From assembly GCA_003281085.1 (NCBI GenBank), contig QCCZ01000001.1, positions 99,452 through 163,451 on the forward strand: DNA of 64,000 nucleotides, written 5' to 3'. Shown piece by piece: positions 7,006 through 56,739 of this stretch. The DNA is from OCS155 cluster bacterium AG-349-E07. Its GTDB lineage: Bacteria; Actinomycetota; Acidimicrobiia; Actinomarinales; Actinomarinaceae. Below the pieces are notes generated by a model. That model worked only from the letters and a program-made list of their open reading frames with translations. It was not told where the DNA came from and did not search any database. Each line of letters starts with the position of its first letter. The first letter of the stretch is position 1. The position numbers and the translations under genes were made by a program.

Positions 7006-8297
7006 ACCCTATTTCTGTTAATGAATTAACTGAATCAGTAAACTCTAATTTACCAAGAGATATAAAATCTACGATTGCAAAAAATATACTTTCAGAGGAA
7101 AAAGACTCTGATGTTGCAAAAAATATATTCTCTGAAATTATAAATGATTTAAGTTCAAAAACTCAAAGAGAAGTTGTAAATGCAACTGGTACTGTACTAC
7201 ATACAAACTTAGGTCGTTCTCCAAATAACATAAGCTTTCCTGGAAGTTATACAAATATTGAATACGATTTAAAGACTTTATCTAGAGGAAAAAGAAATGA
7301 ATACCTATCTGTACTTATGAATAACCTTATAGAATCTCAGGATATTGCTTTTGTAAACAACAATGCCTCTTCTCTTTTTCTCTCATTAAAAGCCATTTCT
7401 AAGTCACATAATATTCAAAATGTAATTATTTCTAGAGGTGAAATTATAGAAATTGGAGGCTCATATAGGCTTCCTGAAATAATCAATGAGACTGGTTTAG
7501 ACCTTGTAGAGATAGGCACAACAAACAAGACTAAATTGAGTGATTACAGAAAAGCATTAGAAAAGTACCCAAATTCTTTGATATTAAAAGTTCACAGGTC
7601 AAATTTCTCAATCAAGGGTTTTACAGAGGATGTTTCAATTGAAGAACTCGCTGAATTAAAAAATAAATTTGACGTTTTTCTTTTTCATGACTTGGGGAGT
7701 GGTTTAGTAATTGATAAGAAATTTTTAGAAATTAATAATATAAGTATCTTCAAAGATGAACCATTTGTGCAAGATTCACTTTCTGATGGTGCAAATTTAG
7801 TTATGTTTTCTGGAGACAAATTATTTGGGTCAGTTCAATCTGGAATGATTGCAGGAGATGACGACTTGGTTAATGAAATTAAAAACTACAGTTTGTTTAG
7901 AACTTATCGTTGCTCACCTATGACCTTATTTGAACTTCAAGAGACTGTACTTAAATATATAAATAAACAAGAAAAAGAGATACCTTTTTGGAATCTTATT
8001 ACACAACCTTATTCCTCCTTAGAAGATAGGTGTAAAAATTTGGCTAAATCTATTTCTTTTTCTACAAGCATAGAAAAAGGTGAAAGTGTAATTGGTGGAG
8101 GAACACTACCAGATGTCACTTTAGAATCACCTATCTTACTTATAAATAATGAAAAAACAGTAGATACTGTCAATCAGTTAATTAAAAACGATATCCCCAT
8201 AATTCCAAGAATTATTAAGGATCAAGTTTGTCTTGATTTAAGAAGTGTATTTCATAATCAAGATAACATAATTGTACAAGCATTAAATAATTCATGA
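7002..8297 (+). CDS. selA: L-seryl-tRNA(Sec) selenium transferase (selenocysteine synthase)
   Basis: blocks match E. coli SelA: ATGTVLHTNLGR, EYDL..RGKR, FVNNNA, SRGEIIEIGGSYRLPE, EIGTTNKT, FSGDKLFG..Q.G; overlaps selB start (ATGA). Confidence 0.85.
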   Translation: MNPISVNELTESVNSNLPRDIKSTIAKNILSEEKDSDVAKNIFSEIINDLSSKTQREVVNATGTVLHTNLGRSPNNISFPGSYTNIEYDLKTLSRGKRNEYLSVLMNNLIESQDIAFVNNNASSLFLSLKAISKSHNIQNVIISRGEIIEIGGSYRLPEIINETGLDLVEIGTTNKTKLSDYRKALEKYPNSLILKVHRSNFSIKGFTEDVSIEELAELKNKFDVFLFHDLGSGLVIDKKFLEINNISIFKDEPFVQDSLSDGANLVMFSGDKLFGSVQSGMIAGDDDLVNEIKNYSLFRTYRCSPMTLFELQETVLKYINKQEKEIPFWNLITQPYSSLEDRCKNLAKSISFSTSIEKGESVIGGGTLPDVTLESPILLINNEKTVDTVNQLIKNDIPIIPRIIKDQVCLDLRSVFHNQDNIIVQALNNS

Positions 8298-9967
8298 CCG
8301 TACTTGCAACTGCAGGCCATGTAGATCATGGAAAATCAACTTTTGTAAATTTTTTAACAGGTCAAGAAACTGACAGATTAAAAGAAGAAAAAATCCGCGG
8401 ATTAACTATAAATCTTGGATATACCTATTTTGAATTTAAAAATAGAAGAATATCTATTGTTGATGTCCCTGGTCATGTTGACTACTTTAAAAACACCATT
8501 GCAGGATTTGCAAATGTCGACGGTATAATTTTTTGTATCGACTCTGTTCAGGGGTGGTCTAGACAATCAGAGGAACATTTTCAAGCAATTAGAAATCTGC
8601 AGATTAATAATATTTTTTTTGTACTAACAAAAACAGATTTACTAGATTCTCCAGTTGATAAAAGTTATCTTGAAAAAAAATTAAAAGATGAAAAAGAAAT
8701 AAATTACACAATTGATGAATTTACTTATAAAACTAGCGATCTTAAACTATTTCAAGAAAAAATAGTAAACTTCTTTAAGTCTGACTCATTTGAAAACCCA
8801 AATTCATTATGGATTGATCGTAGTTTTACCAAGGATGGAATTGGTAAAGTTATAACTGGTACTGCTTCTATGGCTTTTGATTTAGAAAATATGTATCTTG
8901 CTAGGACAAACAAATTATTAGAAGTAAAAGAAATACGAAATAGTGAAGATAAAGTTAAAAATATTACATCCACATCAAGAATTGCTATCTCTCTCAAGAA
9001 GGGTACTCAAGACGATATTAGTCGAGGCGATTTGTTAACGAATGGAGTTGTTTCTTCAGGTAAATATATTTTTGCAATTTTAAATGGAAATGATAATGGG
9101 TTTAAGAACAAAGGAAGCAATAGATTGTTTGTTGGGACAATAAATCAAATTGTCAAAAGATTAGAGATTATAAATGCTTCAGAAAAAATTTTAATATATA
9201 TAGAGCTACCAAATAAATTACCAATATTAGAAAACCAGAAAATATTAATTCAAAACATGGTGTCTAATGATTTCATAGGTGGAAAAATTGCATTTGTTTC
9301 GAATAATAATAATTTAGTTAAAACATTTTTCAGACAAGTTCGAAAAACTGAATTTATTGATGTAGAAAAAGCATTTACTCTTCTTTCAGAAAATCTAAAG
9401 GAAAATTCCAAAGATTATATAGATATAAGCAACAAATACATATCAAAAGATTATTTGGAACGTATGACCCAAAAAATTAAGGAAAATATAAAAACTATAA
9501 ATTCGGTTGGTGTTAAAAATTATTTCCATGATCAATTTTTCATAGAGGATAATTATATTGATGAATTAATAGATAAAATCGATGGGTTAAATATTATAAA
9601 TGACCAGTTATTTGTTGATAAAGAAACAGTTGTTGATTTAGAGGTTTACCAGAACGTTATCAAGGAGATGTCGACCGATCTATCAGTTAAACGTGTTGAT
9701 ATAGATAAGTTCAATAAAGAATCTATAAAAGAACTCTTTATGAACGAGTATCTATTTAGAGTTAATAAAAATATAATTATTGGAAAAGAGCATAAATCAG
9801 AGCTTGTTGAAATTCTGGAAAAATTACCTGATATTTTTGATGTATCCGAATTTAAAGAAGCTTCTAATTTATCCAGAAAGTATGCGATACCTTATTTGGA
9901 GTTTTTAGATAAATGTTTATATACTTCAAAAATTAATAGTTCAGGAAAAAGAAAAAAATTAGTTTGA
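8294..9967 (+). CDS. selB: selenocysteine-specific translation elongation factor
   Basis: N-terminal ATAGHVDHGKST, DVPGH GTPase motifs matching SelB; long C-terminal extension ending in a winged-helix-like segment (RKYAIPYLEFLDK). Confidence 0.85.
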   Translation: MTVLATAGHVDHGKSTFVNFLTGQETDRLKEEKIRGLTINLGYTYFEFKNRRISIVDVPGHVDYFKNTIAGFANVDGIIFCIDSVQGWSRQSEEHFQAIRNLQINNIFFVLTKTDLLDSPVDKSYLEKKLKDEKEINYTIDEFTYKTSDLKLFQEKIVNFFKSDSFENPNSLWIDRSFTKDGIGKVITGTASMAFDLENMYLARTNKLLEVKEIRNSEDKVKNITSTSRIAISLKKGTQDDISRGDLLTNGVVSSGKYIFAILNGNDNGFKNKGSNRLFVGTINQIVKRLEIINASEKILIYIELPNKLPILENQKILIQNMVSNDFIGGKIAFVSNNNNLVKTFFRQVRKTEFIDVEKAFTLLSENLKENSKDYIDISNKYISKDYLERMTQKIKENIKTINSVGVKNYFHDQFFIEDNYIDELIDKIDGLNIINDQLFVDKETVVDLEVYQNVIKEMSTDLSVKRVDIDKFNKESIKELFMNEYLFRVNKNIIIGKEHKSELVEILEKLPDIFDVSEFKEASNLSRKYAIPYLEFLDKCLYTSKINSSGKRKKLV

Positions 9968-10219: not shown

Positions 10220-10278
10220 ATGTAAACAGTAATTAAAGATTCTATTGTGTAAAAAGATTTTTTTCGCGAAGTAATTAA

Positions 10279-47188: not shown

Positions 47189-47495
47189 ATAAAATAATTT
47201 TGACTAAAATTAAATAGTTATGAACGCTACAAGAATACTAATAGGTGCATTTATACTTCTAATACCTTTATTTTGTGGTTTTCTCTTACTCTCCCAATAG
47301 ATTTGTAAGAATTAATTAGTTAGGGAACGTTGGGGCTCTGGTCAAAAGGCTCGTCGTATCTGCTCTCATAAAAATCTTCAGCTGTTCTGTATATTTTTTT
47401 TGAAGTAACAAGAATCGTGACAATACCTTTTTTAACAAGCCACCTATATGGTGCAGAAAATAGTCTTTTTTCTAGTTCTAAAAGCTTCTTAAACA

Positions 47496-47966: not shown

Positions 47967-49235
47967 TTATAGATCGTTTATATACGTATCTTGAAAACTT
48001 TGTCTATTGACTAACTCAACTACACCACTACTTGTAACTGCAACTACTCCGGATTTAGGTACTCGGTTATAGTTACTGGCCATAGCAAAGGTATACGCAC
48101 CAGTAGAAGTAGACATTAAAATGTCTCCTGACACGGTATCCCTTGGCAACATTGCATCTTTTACTAATAAATCTCCACTTTCACAGTGTCTACCAGAGAC
48201 TGCATAGACTACGTCCTCTCTAGCTTTTCTACCAGAAATGTTAAAAAGCTTGTGTTCGCTTCCATATAATGCAGGCCTTGGATTGTCTGACATACCACCA
48301 TCCACTAAGATATATGGTTTCTCACCTCGGTCATCTTTAATAGCCCCGGCAGTATATAAAATGACTCCTGGATTGTTTACTAAGGCTCTTCCTGGCTCAA
48401 TCATGACTTTGTAGGATCCACTCCAGTGTTCTAAAATACCTTGATGAATTGCATCAGCATACACTTTTAATTCATGGTCAACTTCATCGCCTGCATAAGG
48501 TGAAAAGAATCCACCACCAGCATCAAAAACAATTTCCCTCTCCACACTTGCAGGATGAGCGTTGAGAAAATCTGCACATTCACTCATTGCTTTTTTATAA
48601 CGGTCTGGTTCTTTAATCTGGCTTCCAATATGAACATGGACTCCAGAAAACAGTAAATGCTTAGATTTATATATCTGTTGAAGTGCCTCTTCAGCAAAAC
48701 CAATAGAGATCCCGAACTGTTGGTCATTTCCTGAGGTCAACACCATTGGATGGGTCTCTGCTCCAACATCTAAATTTATACGCATAATGACTGGTTGTTT
48801 TCTATCTAATTTATTTGCAACCTCTTCTAACATCGGGATCTCAAAACGATTATCAACTGAGATGTGGCCACCATTATGTTGCATAAAGAACTCAATCTCA
48901 TCTTTATTCTTAAAAGTTCCGTTAAACAATGAGTTTTCTAAGGTTCCAGTAACAGCTTGGACAGTTGCCATCTCTCCACCTGAGACAACATCTACTCCCC
49001 AACCTTTGTCATCTAGTTCTTTGACTAAGGCTTTGCAGATAAATGCTTTTGCTGCATATCTAAAATAGGTATCTTCTCCAAAAGCATTCGTAAAATAATC
49101 TATATTATCTAGTAGATGTTCCCAGTCATAGACATAGAGAGGAGTCCCATACTCTTTAGCGACATCAAGCAGTGAAGTCTCTCCGATAAAAGCGACTCCG
49201 TCTTTAAATTCAAGGTTAGATGGTAAATAGTTCAT
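47967..49235 (-). CDS. lysA: diaminopimelate decarboxylase (fold-III PLP decarboxylase)
   Basis: YAAKAF PLP-Lys region; GGG and CESGD-like motifs; about 422 aa. Confidence 0.7.
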   Translation of the reverse strand: MNYLPSNLEFKDGVAFIGETSLLDVAKEYGTPLYVYDWEHLLDNIDYFTNAFGEDTYFRYAAKAFICKALVKELDDKGWGVDVVSGGEMATVQAVTGTLENSLFNGTFKNKDEIEFFMQHNGGHISVDNRFEIPMLEEVANKLDRKQPVIMRINLDVGAETHPMVLTSGNDQQFGISIGFAEEALQQIYKSKHLLFSGVHVHIGSQIKEPDRYKKAMSECADFLNAHPASVEREIVFDAGGGFFSPYAGDEVDHELKVYADAIHQGILEHWSGSYKVMIEPGRALVNNPGVILYTAGAIKDDRGEKPYILVDGGMSDNPRPALYGSEHKLFNISGRKAREDVVYAVSGRHCESGDLLVKDAMLPRDTVSGDILMSTSTGAYTFAMASNYNRVPKSGVVAVTSSGVVELVNRQSFQDTYINDL

Positions 49236-49999
49236 TTCTTTAAGCGACGTTTAATCCACGCAATGTCTTTCTTTTGCGCTTCTAGTCCTCCAGGAGTTTC
49301 TACAACAATATCTGTTTTACAGTTTTTAATGACATATTCAAGTTCAGCTTTTGGAATCTGTCCTTTGCCCAAGTTCTCGTGGCGATCTCTCGAGCTTTCA
49401 AAACCATCTTTTGAGTCATTGAAATGAACAAGGTCTATCTTTTTAACAAGTTTTTTAAATCCTTTTACTGCTTTTTCTGTAGGAATTCCTCCTGCCCATG
49501 TATGGCATGTATCGAGACAGAGCCCAACGTTTAAATGGCCAATTACTTCCCATAGTCTTTCAATGGAGTCCATGTATCTGGCAACTGAGTTTTTTCCACC
49601 AGCTGTATTTTCTACCAGTACTCGCATTCCGGTGTCTTCAACATGTTCTATAGCTTTTTTCCAGTTGTCATAACCAACACCAATGTCTCCACCTTCTCCA
49701 ACAGACCCTCCGTGAACAATGACTCCTTTGGCGCCAAAACTTGCGGCGACTTTACATGTGTCTTTTAATAATTTTCTACTGGGATGACGTACTTTATTGT
49801 TTGGAGTGGCAACATTTATTAAGTATGGTGCGTGGACATATATTGGTCCGTCATAATCTTGTAAAATATCGACGTCTTCTCGAGGTTTTGGGCTTTTCCA
49901 CATTTGAGGACTGGATATAAATATTTGAAAAGTGTCACCTTTTCGCATTTTTATCTCTTCAATTGCGTTTTTTGAGGGTATATGAGCACCAATATTCAT
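49232..49999 (-). CDS. nfo: endonuclease IV-like AP endonuclease (xylose-isomerase-like TIM barrel)
   Basis: GAH, HAPYLINVA, VHGGS blocks. Confidence 0.65.
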   Translation of the reverse strand: MNIGAHIPSKNAIEEIKMRKGDTFQIFISSPQMWKSPKPREDVDILQDYDGPIYVHAPYLINVATPNNKVRHPSRKLLKDTCKVAASFGAKGVIVHGGSVGEGGDIGVGYDNWKKAIEHVEDTGMRVLVENTAGGKNSVARYMDSIERLWEVIGHLNVGLCLDTCHTWAGGIPTEKAVKGFKKLVKKIDLVHFNDSKDGFESSRDRHENLGKGQIPKAELEYVIKNCKTDIVVETPGGLEAQKKDIAWIKRRLKK

Positions 50000-50149
50000 G
50001 AATTTAAGTATAAATCATCCTAATTTTTGCCCAAATGATAAAAATAAACGATACAACACTAAAATAAGAGTAAGACTTCCTTTCGTACTTTGAGCCACTT
50101 CAAAAGGGCGATAAAACAAAAATTACAGCCACAGGGAGTCTTTTTGCCT

Positions 50150-50420
50150 TTTTTCAGAAAAAACATTGTATAAAGTGAAAATCCCGATTGATCTTGCGAC
50201 CCTCCGGGATTTTCGAACTATCTTCTATTAGGTCTTGCGACTTCATTTCTGATAGTTATATAAAAATAGTGTAGATTTGCTATTTTGGCAAGAAATTTGA
50301 GTTTGTTTTTTTCGCGAACTTTTATACATAAATTCTATAAATATTTCAATGTGGAAAGCAAAAATCCCGATTGATCTTCCGACCCTTCGGGATTTTCTGT
50401 TCTATCTTCTTTTCTATCTT
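50150..50420 (+). repeat. diverged tandem duplication of an approximately 180-bp intergenic unit, each copy with a conserved hairpin AAAATCCCG-N18-CGGGATTTT (50178..50213 and 50361..50396)
   Basis: read directly; the two copies align over about 120 bp, ending ...ggcaag / ...tgcaag. Confidence 0.55.
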
Positions 50421-50506
50421 TCGATTTCTTTTCCGATAGTGTTCTATAAATATACGTTATTTTTTATTCTTATGCAAGATATTTACTAATCTATTTTTCG
50501 CGAGGT

Positions 50507-50734
50507 TCATTCCTCTTCTAGAGTGTTATCAGGTCTAAAGGCTTCTTTCACAGAAACAATAATTTGAGAAAGTCCAAGAAAAAGAAGTAGATAATACAAA
50601 TACTCTTCTCTAGTGTTTGTACCAAACTCTTTTAGATCAAAGTAGGTTTTGAGAAATTCTCTAAACGGACCATCAAGAATATTATCTAAGGCTAGATAGA
50701 TTAATGTCACTCCAAAAAGAAAAGGTCTTATCAA
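50507..50734 (-). CDS. small membrane protein
   Basis: two hydrophobic segments; ORF only. Confidence 0.25.
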   Translation of the reverse strand: MIRPFLFGVTLIYLALDNILDGPFREFLKTYFDLKEFGTNTREEYLYYLLLFLGLSQIIVSVKEAFRPDNTLEEE

Positions 50735-50800
50735 TTTTTTCTCTCTTTATATTTTTTATCTTTAGGTATCAGAATAACCTAATTTAGCTATTGTTTTGGT

Positions 50801-51496
50801 ATGGAAATTGTACTTATACGCCATGGACAGCCTGCATGGATGCTAAACGATGAATATACAAGAAATCCTGGCCTCACTGAACTTGGAGTTATTCAGGCTA
50901 AAAAATCTGCTGACCAGTTTCCAGAGAATAGCATCGATCAGCTCTGGGTTTCACCTTTAAACAGAACCGCACAAACACTTGTACCCTTTGAAGAAAATGA
51001 AGTTGCTAAAGAGATAAAGACTTTCGAGTGGCTGAAAGAAATGGAAGATAAAGACGAGGTTGCATTGTATGGAAAAAGCACCGATGAGATAATGAGTTTT
51101 TTTGAAAAAAGGAATAGTCAAACGTTTGAAGAGTGGTCTGCTAGTAACCATGGAGTATATATGCAGGATTTTGCTAAGAACATAATCACCAATCTTGAAA
51201 AGGAATTAAAAAGCCTAGGGATTGTATGCACAGATGATACCTTTGATAAGAAATTTGAAATAAAAAATGATTCTATAAAAAATTTAATGATAATTTCGCA
51301 TGCAGGAACAATGTCTGTTTTGCTTTCATATTTTTTAAATATGCCACTTTATGCATGGACATGGAAAAAATTCCTACCAAGACACACCGGTCATACAAGG
51401 TTGAAATCTACCGCAATATCAGACGGTCACTTTTTTAGGCTTAAAGAGTTTAATAATGTGTCTTTTATAGAAAATCCAGAGGAGCAAACCTACTAA
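50801..51496 (+). CDS. histidine phosphatase family protein (PGM/SixA-like)
   Basis: N-terminal LIRHGQ catalytic RHG motif. Confidence 0.7.
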   Translation: MEIVLIRHGQPAWMLNDEYTRNPGLTELGVIQAKKSADQFPENSIDQLWVSPLNRTAQTLVPFEENEVAKEIKTFEWLKEMEDKDEVALYGKSTDEIMSFFEKRNSQTFEEWSASNHGVYMQDFAKNIITNLEKELKSLGIVCTDDTFDKKFEIKNDSIKNLMIISHAGTMSVLLSYFLNMPLYAWTWKKFLPRHTGHTRLKSTAISDGHFFRLKEFNNVSFIENPEEQTY

Positions 51497-55259: not shown

Positions 55260-55260
55260 A

Positions 55261-55288
55261 AAACAAACCGGATTTAAATCCGGTTTGT
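55261..55288. terminator. bidirectional intrinsic terminator hairpin ACAAACCGGATTT/AAATCCGGTTTGT
   Basis: perfect 13-bp palindrome immediately after the permease stop. Confidence 0.55.
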
Positions 55289-55398
55289 CAAAATAACCTG
55301 TGAAGTCTTCCCCCAAAGTTCTCACTAATTATTTGAAGATATGATCTCCCCGTAATCATTGTACAAATCAGTATTTTGGAATGCATTAAAAAAACTAT

Positions 55399-55456
55399 AT
55401 TTTCACAAACTGAGATCTTTTGTGAAAATAAAATCACAATCTTGCAAGGTTGTGAA
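55399..55456. promoter_or_regulatory. two inverted repeats with TCACA/TGTGA half-sites (ATTTTCACAAA-N8-TTTGTGAAAAT; TCACAA-N11-TTGTGA with internal CTTGCAAG palindrome) upstream of the 55571 gene
   Basis: read directly. Confidence 0.35.
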
Positions 55457-55570
55457 GAAGAAATTATAATGTATTAAAGGGTCAATCACGTGTATGCGTT
55501 GAAAATCACTCAAACACACTTCCATAGGTGGTTGACCTATGCCCAAAGTAGTAGCTTCTAAATTTTATTT

Positions 55571-56518: not shown

Positions 56519-56680
56519 AAATTCAGTTTAAAGATAGTTTAATAAAAGTTCAGGAAGTTGTTTTAATCTTCTTGCTGTGTCGTCTTCAGAAAAAAGTATA
56601 TAGAGAAGCAACAAAATAAGTATTACTCTTGTAAGTGTTATTTTTCTGAACATAGAAATATGCTAAATATTTTCAATATA

Positions 56681-56714
56681 AAAAAAAGGGATTTTATAAA
56701 AAATCCCTTTTTTT
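56681..56714. terminator. bidirectional intrinsic terminator A8-GGGATTTT-ataa-AAAATCCC-T7
   Basis: read directly; closes the minus-strand operon ending at 56740. Confidence 0.65.
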
Positions 56715-56739
56715 CTATGCGTTATCTGTCCACTTAGAT

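Follow-up and report, generated by a model that had tools for sequence, protein, structure and literature searches.

No ORF-free gap in the window (the whole 64-kb stretch of DNA analysed) is larger than the one at 50000-50506 (507 nt); by crude ORF calling the next two measure 311 and 307 nt, and gaps have a median length of 35 nt. The first-pass annotation had rightly singled it out as a large non-coding region. It is bordered by an nfo-like gene and an ORF of 75 aa. The product of the nfo-like gene (endonuclease IV) matches PF01261 (E = 2e-36) and its homologues are named deoxyribonuclease IV; the gene overlaps lysA (47967-49235). Two direct repeats occupy the gap, with a start-to-start spacing of 183-184 nt. 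The units are ~185 nt long and can be aligned over ~190 nt, in agreement with the spacing of ~183 nt given in the first-pass annotation but not with its alignable length of ~120 nt. A 36-nt hairpin (AAAATCCCG-N18-CGGGATTTT) had been described correctly in both units: the pattern has exactly two matches (50178-50213 and 50361-50396) against 0.02 expected by chance, and none of 100 shuffles contained two. This hairpin is only the 3′ half of the predicted RNA, however, and an upstream hairpin (P1) and a promoter also belong to each unit. The parts are listed below in minus-strand order.

50507-50734, minus strand: 75-aa ORF, the other border of the gap, upstream of unit 2
50494-50504, minus strand: upstream box of unit 2 (type A), CTCGCGAAAAA, core TCGCGA plus A5, about −62 to −52 from the predicted start, read from the sequence
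50472-50477, minus strand: −35-like hexamer of unit 2, TTGCAT, with TTGC conserved in relatives
50449-50454, minus strand: −10-like hexamer of unit 2, TATATT, 17 nt after the −35, with TA..TT conserved
50355-50442, minus strand: predicted type A RNA, ~87 nt, its start predicted from the −10 position and its end from the U-tract UUUUUGCUUU
50402-50439, minus strand: type A hairpin P1, outer stem CUAUC/GAUAG, 9×9 purine-rich internal loop, tip AUC-GAAA-GAU
50360-50397, minus strand: type A hairpin P2, terminator-like, GAAAAUCCCGA / UCGGGAUUUUU, 2×2 purine loop, GGUC-GGAA-GAUC
50308-50318, minus strand: upstream box of unit 1 (type B), TTCGCGAAAAA, from sequence and conservation in relatives
50286-50291, minus strand: −35-like hexamer of unit 1, TTGCCA, from the promoter scan match TTGCCA-17-TATTTT; conserved in relatives
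50263-50268, minus strand: −10-like hexamer of unit 1, TATTTT, from the promoter scan and conservation in relatives
50171-50257, minus strand: predicted type B RNA, ~87 nt, both ends predicted
50218-50255, minus strand: type B hairpin P1, CUAUC/GAUAG, internal loop, tip GUC-GCAA-GAC
50177-50214, minus strand: type B hairpin P2, terminator-like, followed by ACUUUAU
50065-50150, minus strand: element 2, a leader that follows the type B RNA and precedes nfo, AAGACUCCC..GUGGCUGUAAUUUUUGUUUUAUC..AGUGGCUCAAAGYACGAAAGGAAGUC
49232-49999, minus strand: nfo-like gene, on the 3′ side of the gap in minus-strand reading

The box of unit 2 starts 3 nt past the stop codon of the 75-aa ORF. The layout of a unit is a TCGCGA-A5 box at about −60, a −35 element TTGCNN, 17 nt, a −10 element TAnnTT and then the ~87-nt RNA. 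In 107 distinct upstream segments, all from units found via P2 alone, information content peaks only at the TCGCGAAAAA box, TTGC and TA..TT; the spacing is fixed, with TTGC at a constant 16 nt past the box, and the spacers are variable. Each unit has its own predicted promoter of the sigma-70 type, conserved independently of the RNA. The boxes stand almost exclusively ahead of units (127 of the 128 TCGCGA boxes in 722 kb of loci do so). The lone exception, at 10260-10270 of the window and upstream of a WhiB gene, differs from the units in its spacing to promoter-like hexamers, and the box was not accepted as the signal of a wider regulon. Comparison of the WhiB box among relatives is uninformative because all 59 nt of the spacer are shared, with 100% identity, by 10 other assemblies.

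At the other end of the RNA, P2 has a GC-rich stem followed by UUUUUGCUUU or UUUUCACUUU, and looks like a bidirectional intrinsic terminator: preceded by an A-tract and followed by a U-tract, it should act in both directions. A simple terminator scanner made no call on the minus strand, because the internal loop of P2 falls outside the scanner's model. The TTTTC taken in the first-pass annotation for a U-tract consists of the last four stem bases and one C, with no separate U-tract.

The functional strand of both units is the minus strand, the same as that of nfo: it is there that conserved promoter elements, GNRA tetraloops and G·U pairs are all found. All 118 distinct sequences have one and the same G·U pair in P2, which the plus strand would turn into an A·C mismatch; a further G·U pair at the base of P2, present in 72 sequences, would likewise be mismatched there. 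The minus-strand folds of the type B and type A RNAs (−29.1 and −25.3 kcal/mol) have z-scores of −5.0 and −3.8, compared with −3.0 and −2.2 for the plus strand, and a covariance model of the RNA scores 109.7 bits for type A (50353-50446) and 106.7 bits for type B (50170-50262) against 26 and 23 bits on the plus strand. Plus-strand transcripts, as envisaged in the first-pass annotation, are disfavoured by every one of these features. The two substitutions it had placed in the hairpin loop are both real, but these 18 nt form structure of their own on the minus strand: one substitution is position 2 of the tetraloop (GCAA versus GGAA) and the other changes an A-U pair to G·U.

The secondary structure is conserved and is backed by compensatory changes. 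On the minus strand, P2 consists of an 11-bp stem, a 2×2 purine internal loop, a 4-bp stem (GGUC/GAUC) and a GNRA tetraloop. The P1 stem is long and irregular, with a middle rich in purines, and ends in a GNRA tetraloop in nearly all units; the tetraloops seen across units are GCAA, GAAA, GGAA, GUAA and GAGA. In 118 distinct sequences the 15 pairs of P2 and the three pairs of the P1 tip are 100% paired, although conservation of P2 is partly built in, since P2 served as the anchor of the genome scan and the metagenome scan used the promoter plus ACTA; only the two combined are unbiased. The outer stem of P1 is 95% paired and its middle is only 15% Watson-Crick paired in the same set. Two-sided changes occur at nine pairs across the P1 outer stem, the P1 tip and P2 (five of them in P2), including a P1 tip pair that is G-C in 60 sequences and A-U in 58. 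The covariation score was reached by none of 500 shuffles, and sliding the helix register lowered pairing from 75% to 25-44%. Compensated P2 variants (GGCC-GAGA-GGUC, AGUC-GAAA-GAUU, CCCAG/CUGGG and UCUCG/CGAGA) came from units that were missed by the strict P2 pattern and recovered via the box or promoter. In the divergent loci L142 and L179, which belong to a lineage of 37-38% GC, the middle of P1 is fully Watson-Crick, with a perfect stem CUAGAUAAC/GUUAUCUAG replacing the purine loop. The P2 tip (RR-GGUC-GNRA-GAUC-AR) is unchanged in this lineage despite an altered lower stem.

Judged by their reading frames, the units are not protein-coding: type A has no start codon, and type B has a 30-aa ORF that is missing from type A. 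Small ORFs across the units were considered as genes and rejected, as they are not conserved between types or genomes and there are 1-nt indels between the types. Rfam 15 gave no match at gathering score anywhere in the 64-kb window, and at E ≤ 10 on 49900-50850 only chance-level matches overlapped the units. Those on the plus strand were to the rimP leader (20 bits, gathering score 47) and a CRISPR repeat. An algC match on the minus strand (50144-50169; 15.6 bits, gathering score 33.8) touches nothing but the far end of the unit 1 repeat, beyond the predicted RNA. No Rfam family matches the units, no description of the module was found in the literature searched, which also yielded no report of expression for this lineage, and the ~87-nt structured RNA family is previously undescribed.

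Related copies were found in ~70 genome loci of Ca. Actinomarina (OCS155) and on more than 120 metagenome contigs. Among the fetched loci there are 274 instances, or ~3 per ~1-Mb genome, always in the same syntenic places. Three copies lie on a 1.01-Mb contig (two at locus L054 and one at L079), and two in the 64-kb window. These hundreds of conserved copies in relatives exclude decayed promoter DNA with no other copies, the fallback named in the first-pass annotation. Between contigs, orthologues are 92.8% identical for type A and 93% for type B, whereas types A and B are 82% identical within a contig and 81% between contigs; the window pair shows 81% identity to each other and ~93% to their orthologues. 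By these identities the two units in the window represent old paralogous types, A and B, and orthologues of each type are conserved throughout the genus. Concerted evolution of the two types was rejected on the same figures. Within-genome sharing of P2 variants through co-evolution with a partner is only partly true, with counter-examples at loci L044, L083 and L033.

In many relatives, 0.7-3 kb of cassette genes lie between type A and type B. This variable site, between His_Phos_1 and nfo, contains nothing, an acetyltransferase gene, a P450 gene or tdh-kbl, and the number of units at the nfo locus stays at two whatever the cassette content. In this genome the site has no cassette, and only for that reason do the window copies of types A and B seem tandem; the tandem duplication described in the first-pass annotation is not a recent one. 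Types A and B remain distinct, so deletions did not come about through recombination between the units.

The genes that follow the module encode a lipoprotein (79 cases), P450 (47), a 5′-3′ exonuclease (32), nfo (23), tdh (5) and PNPOx-MsrA (4). Start codons lie 23-43 nt past P2 for the exonuclease, P450 and some lipoprotein genes; the module can also stand ~175 nt ahead of genes of this set. About 40 of the 274 units precede a convergent gene (acetyltransferase) or another unit, yet are fully conserved. Element 2 is highly conserved in 44 distinct sequences and is always just 5′ of nfo or of a lipoprotein gene preceding nfo; the structure predicted for it is weak, with zero compensatory changes in those sequences. 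A 13-bp pairing, seen by eye, between the type A linker (GAUAGAACAGAAA) and the element 2 stretch UUUUUGUUUUAUC was rejected, the complementarity being lost in the L020 clade and the duplex energy barely better than that of shuffles (p ~ 0.04).

From what was observed of anatomy, strand, conservation, covariation, copy number and synteny, we infer a function with fair, not full, confidence: the region would consist of two paralogous small-RNA genes on the minus strand, whose terminator also gates read-through into downstream genes. The 'paired sRNA genes' of the first-pass annotation came near this reading, with a different strand, extent and history. Transcription would start a few bases from P1, and most transcripts would stop at P2, giving a stable autonomous small RNA. 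A partner common to the copies would be likely to recognise the near-invariant P2 tip, and P1, which differs by type, may be the part particular to each paralogue. Some transcripts would read past P2 and become the mRNA of the next gene, which is nfo-lysA behind unit 1 in the window, and in relatives the 5′-3′ exonuclease, P450, variable lipoprotein, tdh-kbl or PNPOx-MsrA genes. The nfo gene is probably the recipient of read-through from unit 1; from unit 1 to the nfo start codon, a simple scan gave no further promoter-like site. Because genes sit very close behind many copies, a purely cis-acting leader and a trans-acting RNA cannot be told apart by position.

Sibling sRNA genes with their own promoter and terminator, some of them in tandem, include PrrF1/PrrF2 of Pseudomonas, OmrA/OmrB of E. 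coli, Qrr1-5 of Vibrio and LhrC1-5 of Listeria. The module resembles these in having several paralogues per genome that are sometimes adjacent, an own promoter with a shared conserved box ahead of it, a short structured RNA with a (here predicted) intrinsic terminator at its end, and one part common to the paralogues and another divergent. It differs in showing no sequence or structural similarity to them, in having GNRA tetraloops where theirs are seed-bearing loops, in the copies that also stand directly ahead of genes as leaders, and in its host, a streamlined actinobacterium. The 6C RNA is widespread in the same phylum (Actinomycetota), is of similar size, and likewise has its own promoter and two hairpins, then a terminator, which in the module is a predicted one. 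However, the 6C loops are C-rich, whereas those of the module are GNRA and its single-stranded parts purine-rich, and Rfam gave no 6C match at E ≤ 10.

A purely cis-acting leader or attenuator, with P2 regulated via a protein or ligand at P1 or the P2 tip and controlling a small regulon, has a modest chance of being the whole explanation. The module stands 23-43 nt or ~175 nt ahead of a limited set of genes, several copies per genome precede different operons, as is typical of riboswitch-like leaders, and the interval from P2 to the start codon yielded no separate promoter in a simple scan. The terminator-based leaders (riboswitches, T-boxes, PyrR and RAT/LicT) share with it a promoter-proximal structured RNA plus (here predicted) terminator just 5′ of genes, and one element ahead of several operons per genome. 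Such leaders always lie in the 5′ UTR of the gene that they regulate, and this does not hold for the ~40 fully conserved copies that face a convergent acetyltransferase gene or another unit and have nothing to lead. In the window, type A precedes the promoter of type B and would be redundant as a leader. The terminator hairpin is moreover the most conserved part, no competing antiterminator pairing was evident by inspection, and no riboswitch or leader family of Rfam matches. It is improbable that the units are punctuation only, i.e., portable promoter-plus-terminator modules that end one gene and start the next, with an RNA devoid of function. Consistent with this, the unit 2 box follows the upstream stop codon by only 3 nt, and in relatives the end of P2 and the stop codon of the convergent acetyltransferase gene are ~5 nt apart. 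Non-homologous genes are also preceded by homologous upstream modules, as in 'mobile promoters', which are homologous promoter regions ahead of non-homologous genes; the same ~185-nt module stands before the unrelated nfo, exonuclease, P450, lipoprotein, tdh and PNPOx genes. Unlike mobile promoters, the module includes a structured RNA that covaries and a predicted terminator of its own, and is kept even when no gene follows. A terminator needs no second hairpin, conserved GNRA loops, invariant G·U or fixed purine loop, yet P1 is found in every copy, with compensatory changes, and the P2 tip is the same in the 37-38% GC lineage though the lower stem is altered.

Two plus-strand small RNAs ending at the hairpin and a U-tract, the model of the first-pass annotation, are very improbable. 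The outer arms of P2 (AAAAUCCCG / CGGGAUUUU) are identical on both strands and U's follow on the plus strand too, but that strand has no conserved promoter upstream, folds more weakly, loses the inner stem as G·U becomes A·C, and presents UUGC/UUCC loops instead of GNRA; all conserved elements, and the higher covariance model scores (107-110 against 23-26 bits), are on the minus strand. There is equally little to recommend a DNA-level element, whether REP- or MITE-like repeats or attC-like sites capturing cassettes between the units, although the units do border the variable cassette site, hairpins could form in single-stranded DNA as well, and a repeated intergenic sequence with a palindrome is what REP/BIME elements and MITEs have in common with the module. 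Those elements occur in tens to hundreds of copies, and REP/BIME elements are short palindromes that lack a promoter; the module instead has ~3 copies per genome at fixed syntenic sites across the genus, each a ~185-nt unit with its own promoter and a second hairpin, which also speaks against the REP-like option of the first-pass annotation. Inspection of the unit ends showed no terminal inverted repeats or target duplications, and viral contigs contained no module matches. In 17 nfo loci, no called gene matched an integrase or recombinase family; integron arrays have an adjacent integrase and one attC per cassette, whereas the unit count here does not rise with the cassette count.

The reading as paralogous small-RNA genes with a gated terminator could be taken further, in a form that we consider speculative and on the unlikely side: the module might be the RNA component of a compact regulatory system in which a factor at the near-invariant P2 tip, possibly also at the TCGCGA box, sets termination against read-through at each copy, co-ordinating damage-repair genes (endonuclease IV, 5′-3′ flap exonuclease, MsrA and P450) and releasing sibling small RNAs that carry paralogue-specific P1 arms. 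If true, these very abundant, highly streamlined marine bacteria would have a ribo-regulator of a new class, acting across a regulon.

Few free-living marine bacteria are as small or as abundant as Ca. Actinomarina, which are uncultured and have very few recognisable regulators. Coding sequence makes up ~97% of their genome and intergenic spacers have a median of 2-3 bp (PMC7771536; bioRxiv 10.64898/2026.04.03.716425); no more than two sigma factors, and no two-component system that could be identified, are reported for them (PMC7771536). The three non-coding copies take up ~0.5 kb per genome, are near-unchanged across the genus and are compensated in a more distant lineage, which implies strong selection. 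As the family is absent from Rfam and the searchable literature, it provides a concrete RNA candidate for regulation in Actinomarina. The module probably also accounts for one of the few intrachromosomal repeats in these genomes; the 2026 preprint, which has 84 complete genomes, reports two repeats in each genome.

Outside Ca. Actinomarina, six pattern matches in Streptomyces and one in Oscillospiraceae were perfect GC-rich hairpins, and one in Sericytochromatia lay in GC-rich, coding-like DNA; all were rejected as chance matches and not homologues. Most of the Streptomyces matches sit directly after tRNA genes.

A gap of 507 nt (50000-50506) separates the nfo-like gene from a 75-aa ORF, and no other ORF-free stretch in the 64-kb window (34% GC) is as long; the two that follow it in size measure 311 and 307 nt, against a median of 35 nt. 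The nfo-like gene shares a 4-nt overlap with lysA. The genes bordering the gap are:

49232-49999, minus strand: nfo-like endonuclease IV-type gene (PF01261, E = 2e-36; homologues named deoxyribonuclease IV)
50507-50734, minus strand: 75-aa ORF from ORF calling, with no match in a Pfam search

A repeat finder located two direct repeats, 183-184 nt apart, and a 36-nt palindromic hairpin occurs exactly twice (0.02 expected by chance), bearing out the claim of the first-pass annotation that the gap holds two homologous units. The extent it gave to the homology was too short, as pairwise alignment carries it to ~190 nt. The gaps next in size (55260-55570, 311 nt; 47189-47495, 307 nt; 56519-56739, 221 nt) have no match in Rfam, and 55260-55570 closes with a classic terminator hairpin, ACAAACCGGAUUUAAAUCCGGUUUGUUUUUU.

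On the minus strand, both units (predicted RNAs at ~50171-50257 and ~50355-50442) present the same elements in the same order:

Upstream box, minus strand, first part of each unit: (C/T)TCGCGAAAAA
-35-like hexamer, minus strand, 16 nt after the box: TTGCAT or TTGCCA
-10-like hexamer, minus strand, 17 nt after the -35: TATATT or TATTTT
Opening of the hairpin, minus strand, ~7 nt past the -10: ACUAUC
P1, minus strand: CUAUC...GAUAG, tip AUC-GAAA-GAU or GUC-GCAA-GAC
P2, minus strand: GAAAAUCCCG(A/G)...UCGGGAUUUU(U/C), with a 2x2 purine loop and the tip GGUC-G(G/C)AA-GAUC

In the window, the box of the unit at ~50355-50442 starts 3 nt past the stop codon of the 75-aa ORF; the predicted transcript start is the 5′ end of P1. 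The minus-strand RNAs fold into two hairpins, each capped by a GNRA tetraloop, with energies of -29.1 and -25.3 kcal/mol (z = -5.0 and -3.8). A plus-strand hairpin RNA had been proposed, but folds of that strand are weaker (z = -3.0 and -2.2) and lose the inner stem of P2. The two substitutions previously assigned to the loop fall at tetraloop position 2 and in an A-U to G·U change, and are neutral on the minus strand only. A covariance model, which finds only these two copies in the window, gives them minus-strand scores of 110 and 107 bits versus 26 and 23 bits on the plus strand. Fold energies, neutral substitutions and model scores all favour the minus strand as the functional one.

Homologues of the nfo protein (95% and 85% identity, falling thereafter to about 53%) place the window in marine Acidimicrobiia. 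The nfo loci of relatives carry the P2 sequence on the nfo strand, usually twice. A scan for the P2 pattern in one genome per species returned 79 loci, about 70 of them from Ca. Actinomarina, OCS155 or Actinomarinales SAGs and MAGs. Matches in Streptomyces and Oscillospiraceae were rejected as chance; they are perfect hairpins rich in GC, and those of Streptomyces mostly follow a tRNA gene directly (in L026, L034, L069 and L070 they read TCCCGnnnGGTCGAAAGATCnnnCGGGA and look like ordinary GNRA-capped terminators). One in Sericytochromatia, in GC-rich, coding-like DNA, was likewise set aside. A contig labelled as a Methanosarcinales MAG (CAZRZP010000018.1, locus L066) has 32% GC, a typical Actinomarina-type unit and a P450 gene, and is probably misbinned. 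To offset the fixed P2 of the first scan, metagenomes were then searched with a promoter-only pattern (box, TTG, TAnnTT, ACTA), which gave at least 120 contigs. The fetched loci contain 274 unit instances in all, with 179 distinct RNA sequences, or 118 once near-identical ones are removed. Since both searches kept some of the sequence fixed, the invariance of P2 (L018-L096) and of ACUA (L097 onward) is partly by construction, and claims about structure rest on whichever part each search left free. Genomes carry about three copies; a 1.01-Mb contig, for example, has two at one locus (L054) and one at another (L079).

The promoter is conserved where the search left it free. When 107 distinct upstream segments of units found by P2 only were aligned on the box, high information was confined to TCGCGAAAAA, TTGC and TA..TT, with a variable spacer sequence and fixed spacing. 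Across 722 kb of loci, 127 of 128 TCGCGAAAAA boxes precede a unit. The only TTCGCGAAAAA box outside units, in the window and these loci, is at 10260-10270 (minus strand), within a 59-nt spacer that precedes a WhiB-family gene (PF02467, 9959-10219). Ten other assemblies carry the whole spacer with 100% identity, which makes it uninformative about a link to the units. The adjoining SelB-type elongation factor gene (8294-9967, plus strand) is consistent with the selenocysteine machinery reported for Actinomarina (bioRxiv 10.64898/2026.04.03.716425).

In the alignment of 118 sequences, pairing is 100% across the 15 pairs of P2 and the 3 of the P1 tip and 95% in the P1 outer stem, and changes on both sides occur at nine pairs of these helices; one P1 tip pair, for instance, is G-C in 60 sequences and A-U in 58. 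None of 500 column shuffles reached the observed covariation score or compensated-cell count, and pairing, 75% in register, fell to 25-44% when the 3′ partners were slid by 1-3 columns. The pair at the base of P2 is G·U in 72 sequences, G-C in 29 and A-U in 16, and one G·U in the P2 tip is invariant (118/118). P2 variants outside the strict pattern, recovered via the box or promoter, are compensated (GGCC-GAGA-GGUC, AGUC-GAAA-GAUU, CCCAG/CUGGG, UCUCG/CGAGA). The middle of P1 in the main lineage is a 9x9, mostly purine-purine loop with only 15% Watson-Crick pairing; in two loci of a 37-38% GC lineage (L142, L179) a perfect 9-bp stem replaces it, indicating that P1 is one long hairpin. These two also differ in the lower P2 stem (AACCCAG/CUGGGUU), with the P2 tip unchanged. 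Loops are GNRA (GCAA, GAAA, GGAA, GUAA, GAGA) except for AGCA in P1 of L142 and L179. The units of this divergent lineage (L142:349-503, L179:2472-2567, L177) precede a PNPOx-like gene, behind which comes msrA. The units are thus strongly supported as a real structured-RNA family.

Three types of unit are distinguished:

Type A (unit at ~50355-50442): P1 tip AUC/GAU, tail UUUUUGCUUU
Type B (unit at ~50171-50257): P1 tip GUC/GAC, tail UUUUCACUUU, followed by a conserved leader
Type C: positioned behind a P450 gene

Identity between contigs is 92.8% for type A and 93% for type B, whereas A and B share 82% within a contig, 81% between contigs and 81% in the window. The A/B split therefore predates the genus radiation and the types do not homogenise, which contradicts a recent tandem duplication. 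The locus runs His_Phos_1, small ORF, unit A, cassette, unit B or C, an optional variable lipoprotein gene, leader, nfo and lysA, the cassette being absent, an opposite-strand acetyltransferase, a P450, or tdh-kbl plus acetyltransferase. Directly adjacent A-B pairs like that of the window, spaced 183-218 nt, recur in many genomes. The one copy left is found 26-43 nt upstream of the gene for a 277-281-aa 5′-3′ exonuclease (PF02739, PF01367).

The family is apparently undescribed. No Rfam 15 family matches the units, and full-text literature searches found no description of the element. The 6C RNA, a common actinobacterial two-hairpin sRNA, is ruled out by its defining C-rich loops. A REP-like nature had been suggested, but REP elements and MITEs are ruled out by copy number (about three per genome), synteny and the presence of a promoter, and an integron-like reading by the absence of an integrase among the genes called in the 17 nfo loci and the fixed unit number. 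The earlier alternative, paired sRNA genes, was right in spirit but had the wrong strand, extent and history. In logic the family comes nearest to sibling sRNA genes that share an upstream box (PrrF1/2, OmrA/B, Qrr, LhrC) and to terminator-based leaders; we do not assign it to any named family. Actinomarinales genomes are extremely compact with few repeats (PMC7771536; bioRxiv 10.64898/2026.04.03.716425), and neither paper mentions the element.

P2 has a GC-rich stem with a U-tract downstream and an A-tract upstream, and in relatives about 5 nt separate its end from a convergent gene's stop codon; we infer the architecture of a bidirectional intrinsic terminator. Given this architecture, the main transcript should be an RNA of ~87 nt, ended at P2. 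Behind about 40 copies, all fully conserved, comes a convergent gene or another unit (in the window, the type B promoter comes behind type A); with no gene to lead, their RNA would have to matter apart from a downstream gene. The exonuclease, P450 and some lipoprotein genes have start codons 23-43 nt behind P2, and a simple scan found no separate promoter in between, so that they presumably depend on read-through. The best reading is then a dual-use module, in which the unit would serve as a small RNA plus a terminator-gated leader. P1 is type-specific. Constraint is strongest at the P2 tip, which is kept even where the lower stem is rebuilt; this suggests a specific recognition site. The downstream genes (endonuclease IV, flap exonuclease, P450, and PNPOx-MsrA in the divergent lineage) have a damage-repair flavour, which we regard as a lead only.

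The conserved leader between the type B RNA and nfo (50065-50150, minus strand) is ~85 nt long and almost invariant, with two copies of GUGGCU and complementary ends (GACUCC/GGAAGUC). It has no Rfam match. In 44 distinct relatives its place is always directly before nfo or before the lipoprotein gene preceding nfo. Its predicted structure is weak and no compensatory changes were seen among the 44 distinct sequences; it may therefore act as a protein-binding or DNA-level site. The region from His_Phos_1 through nfo-lysA (L001-L017; 47160-50800 in the window) is a hotspot of gene-content variation, with differing cassettes between the units, and 3′ of lysA the relatives carry varying restriction-modification, McrB-like, helicase or NERD genes.
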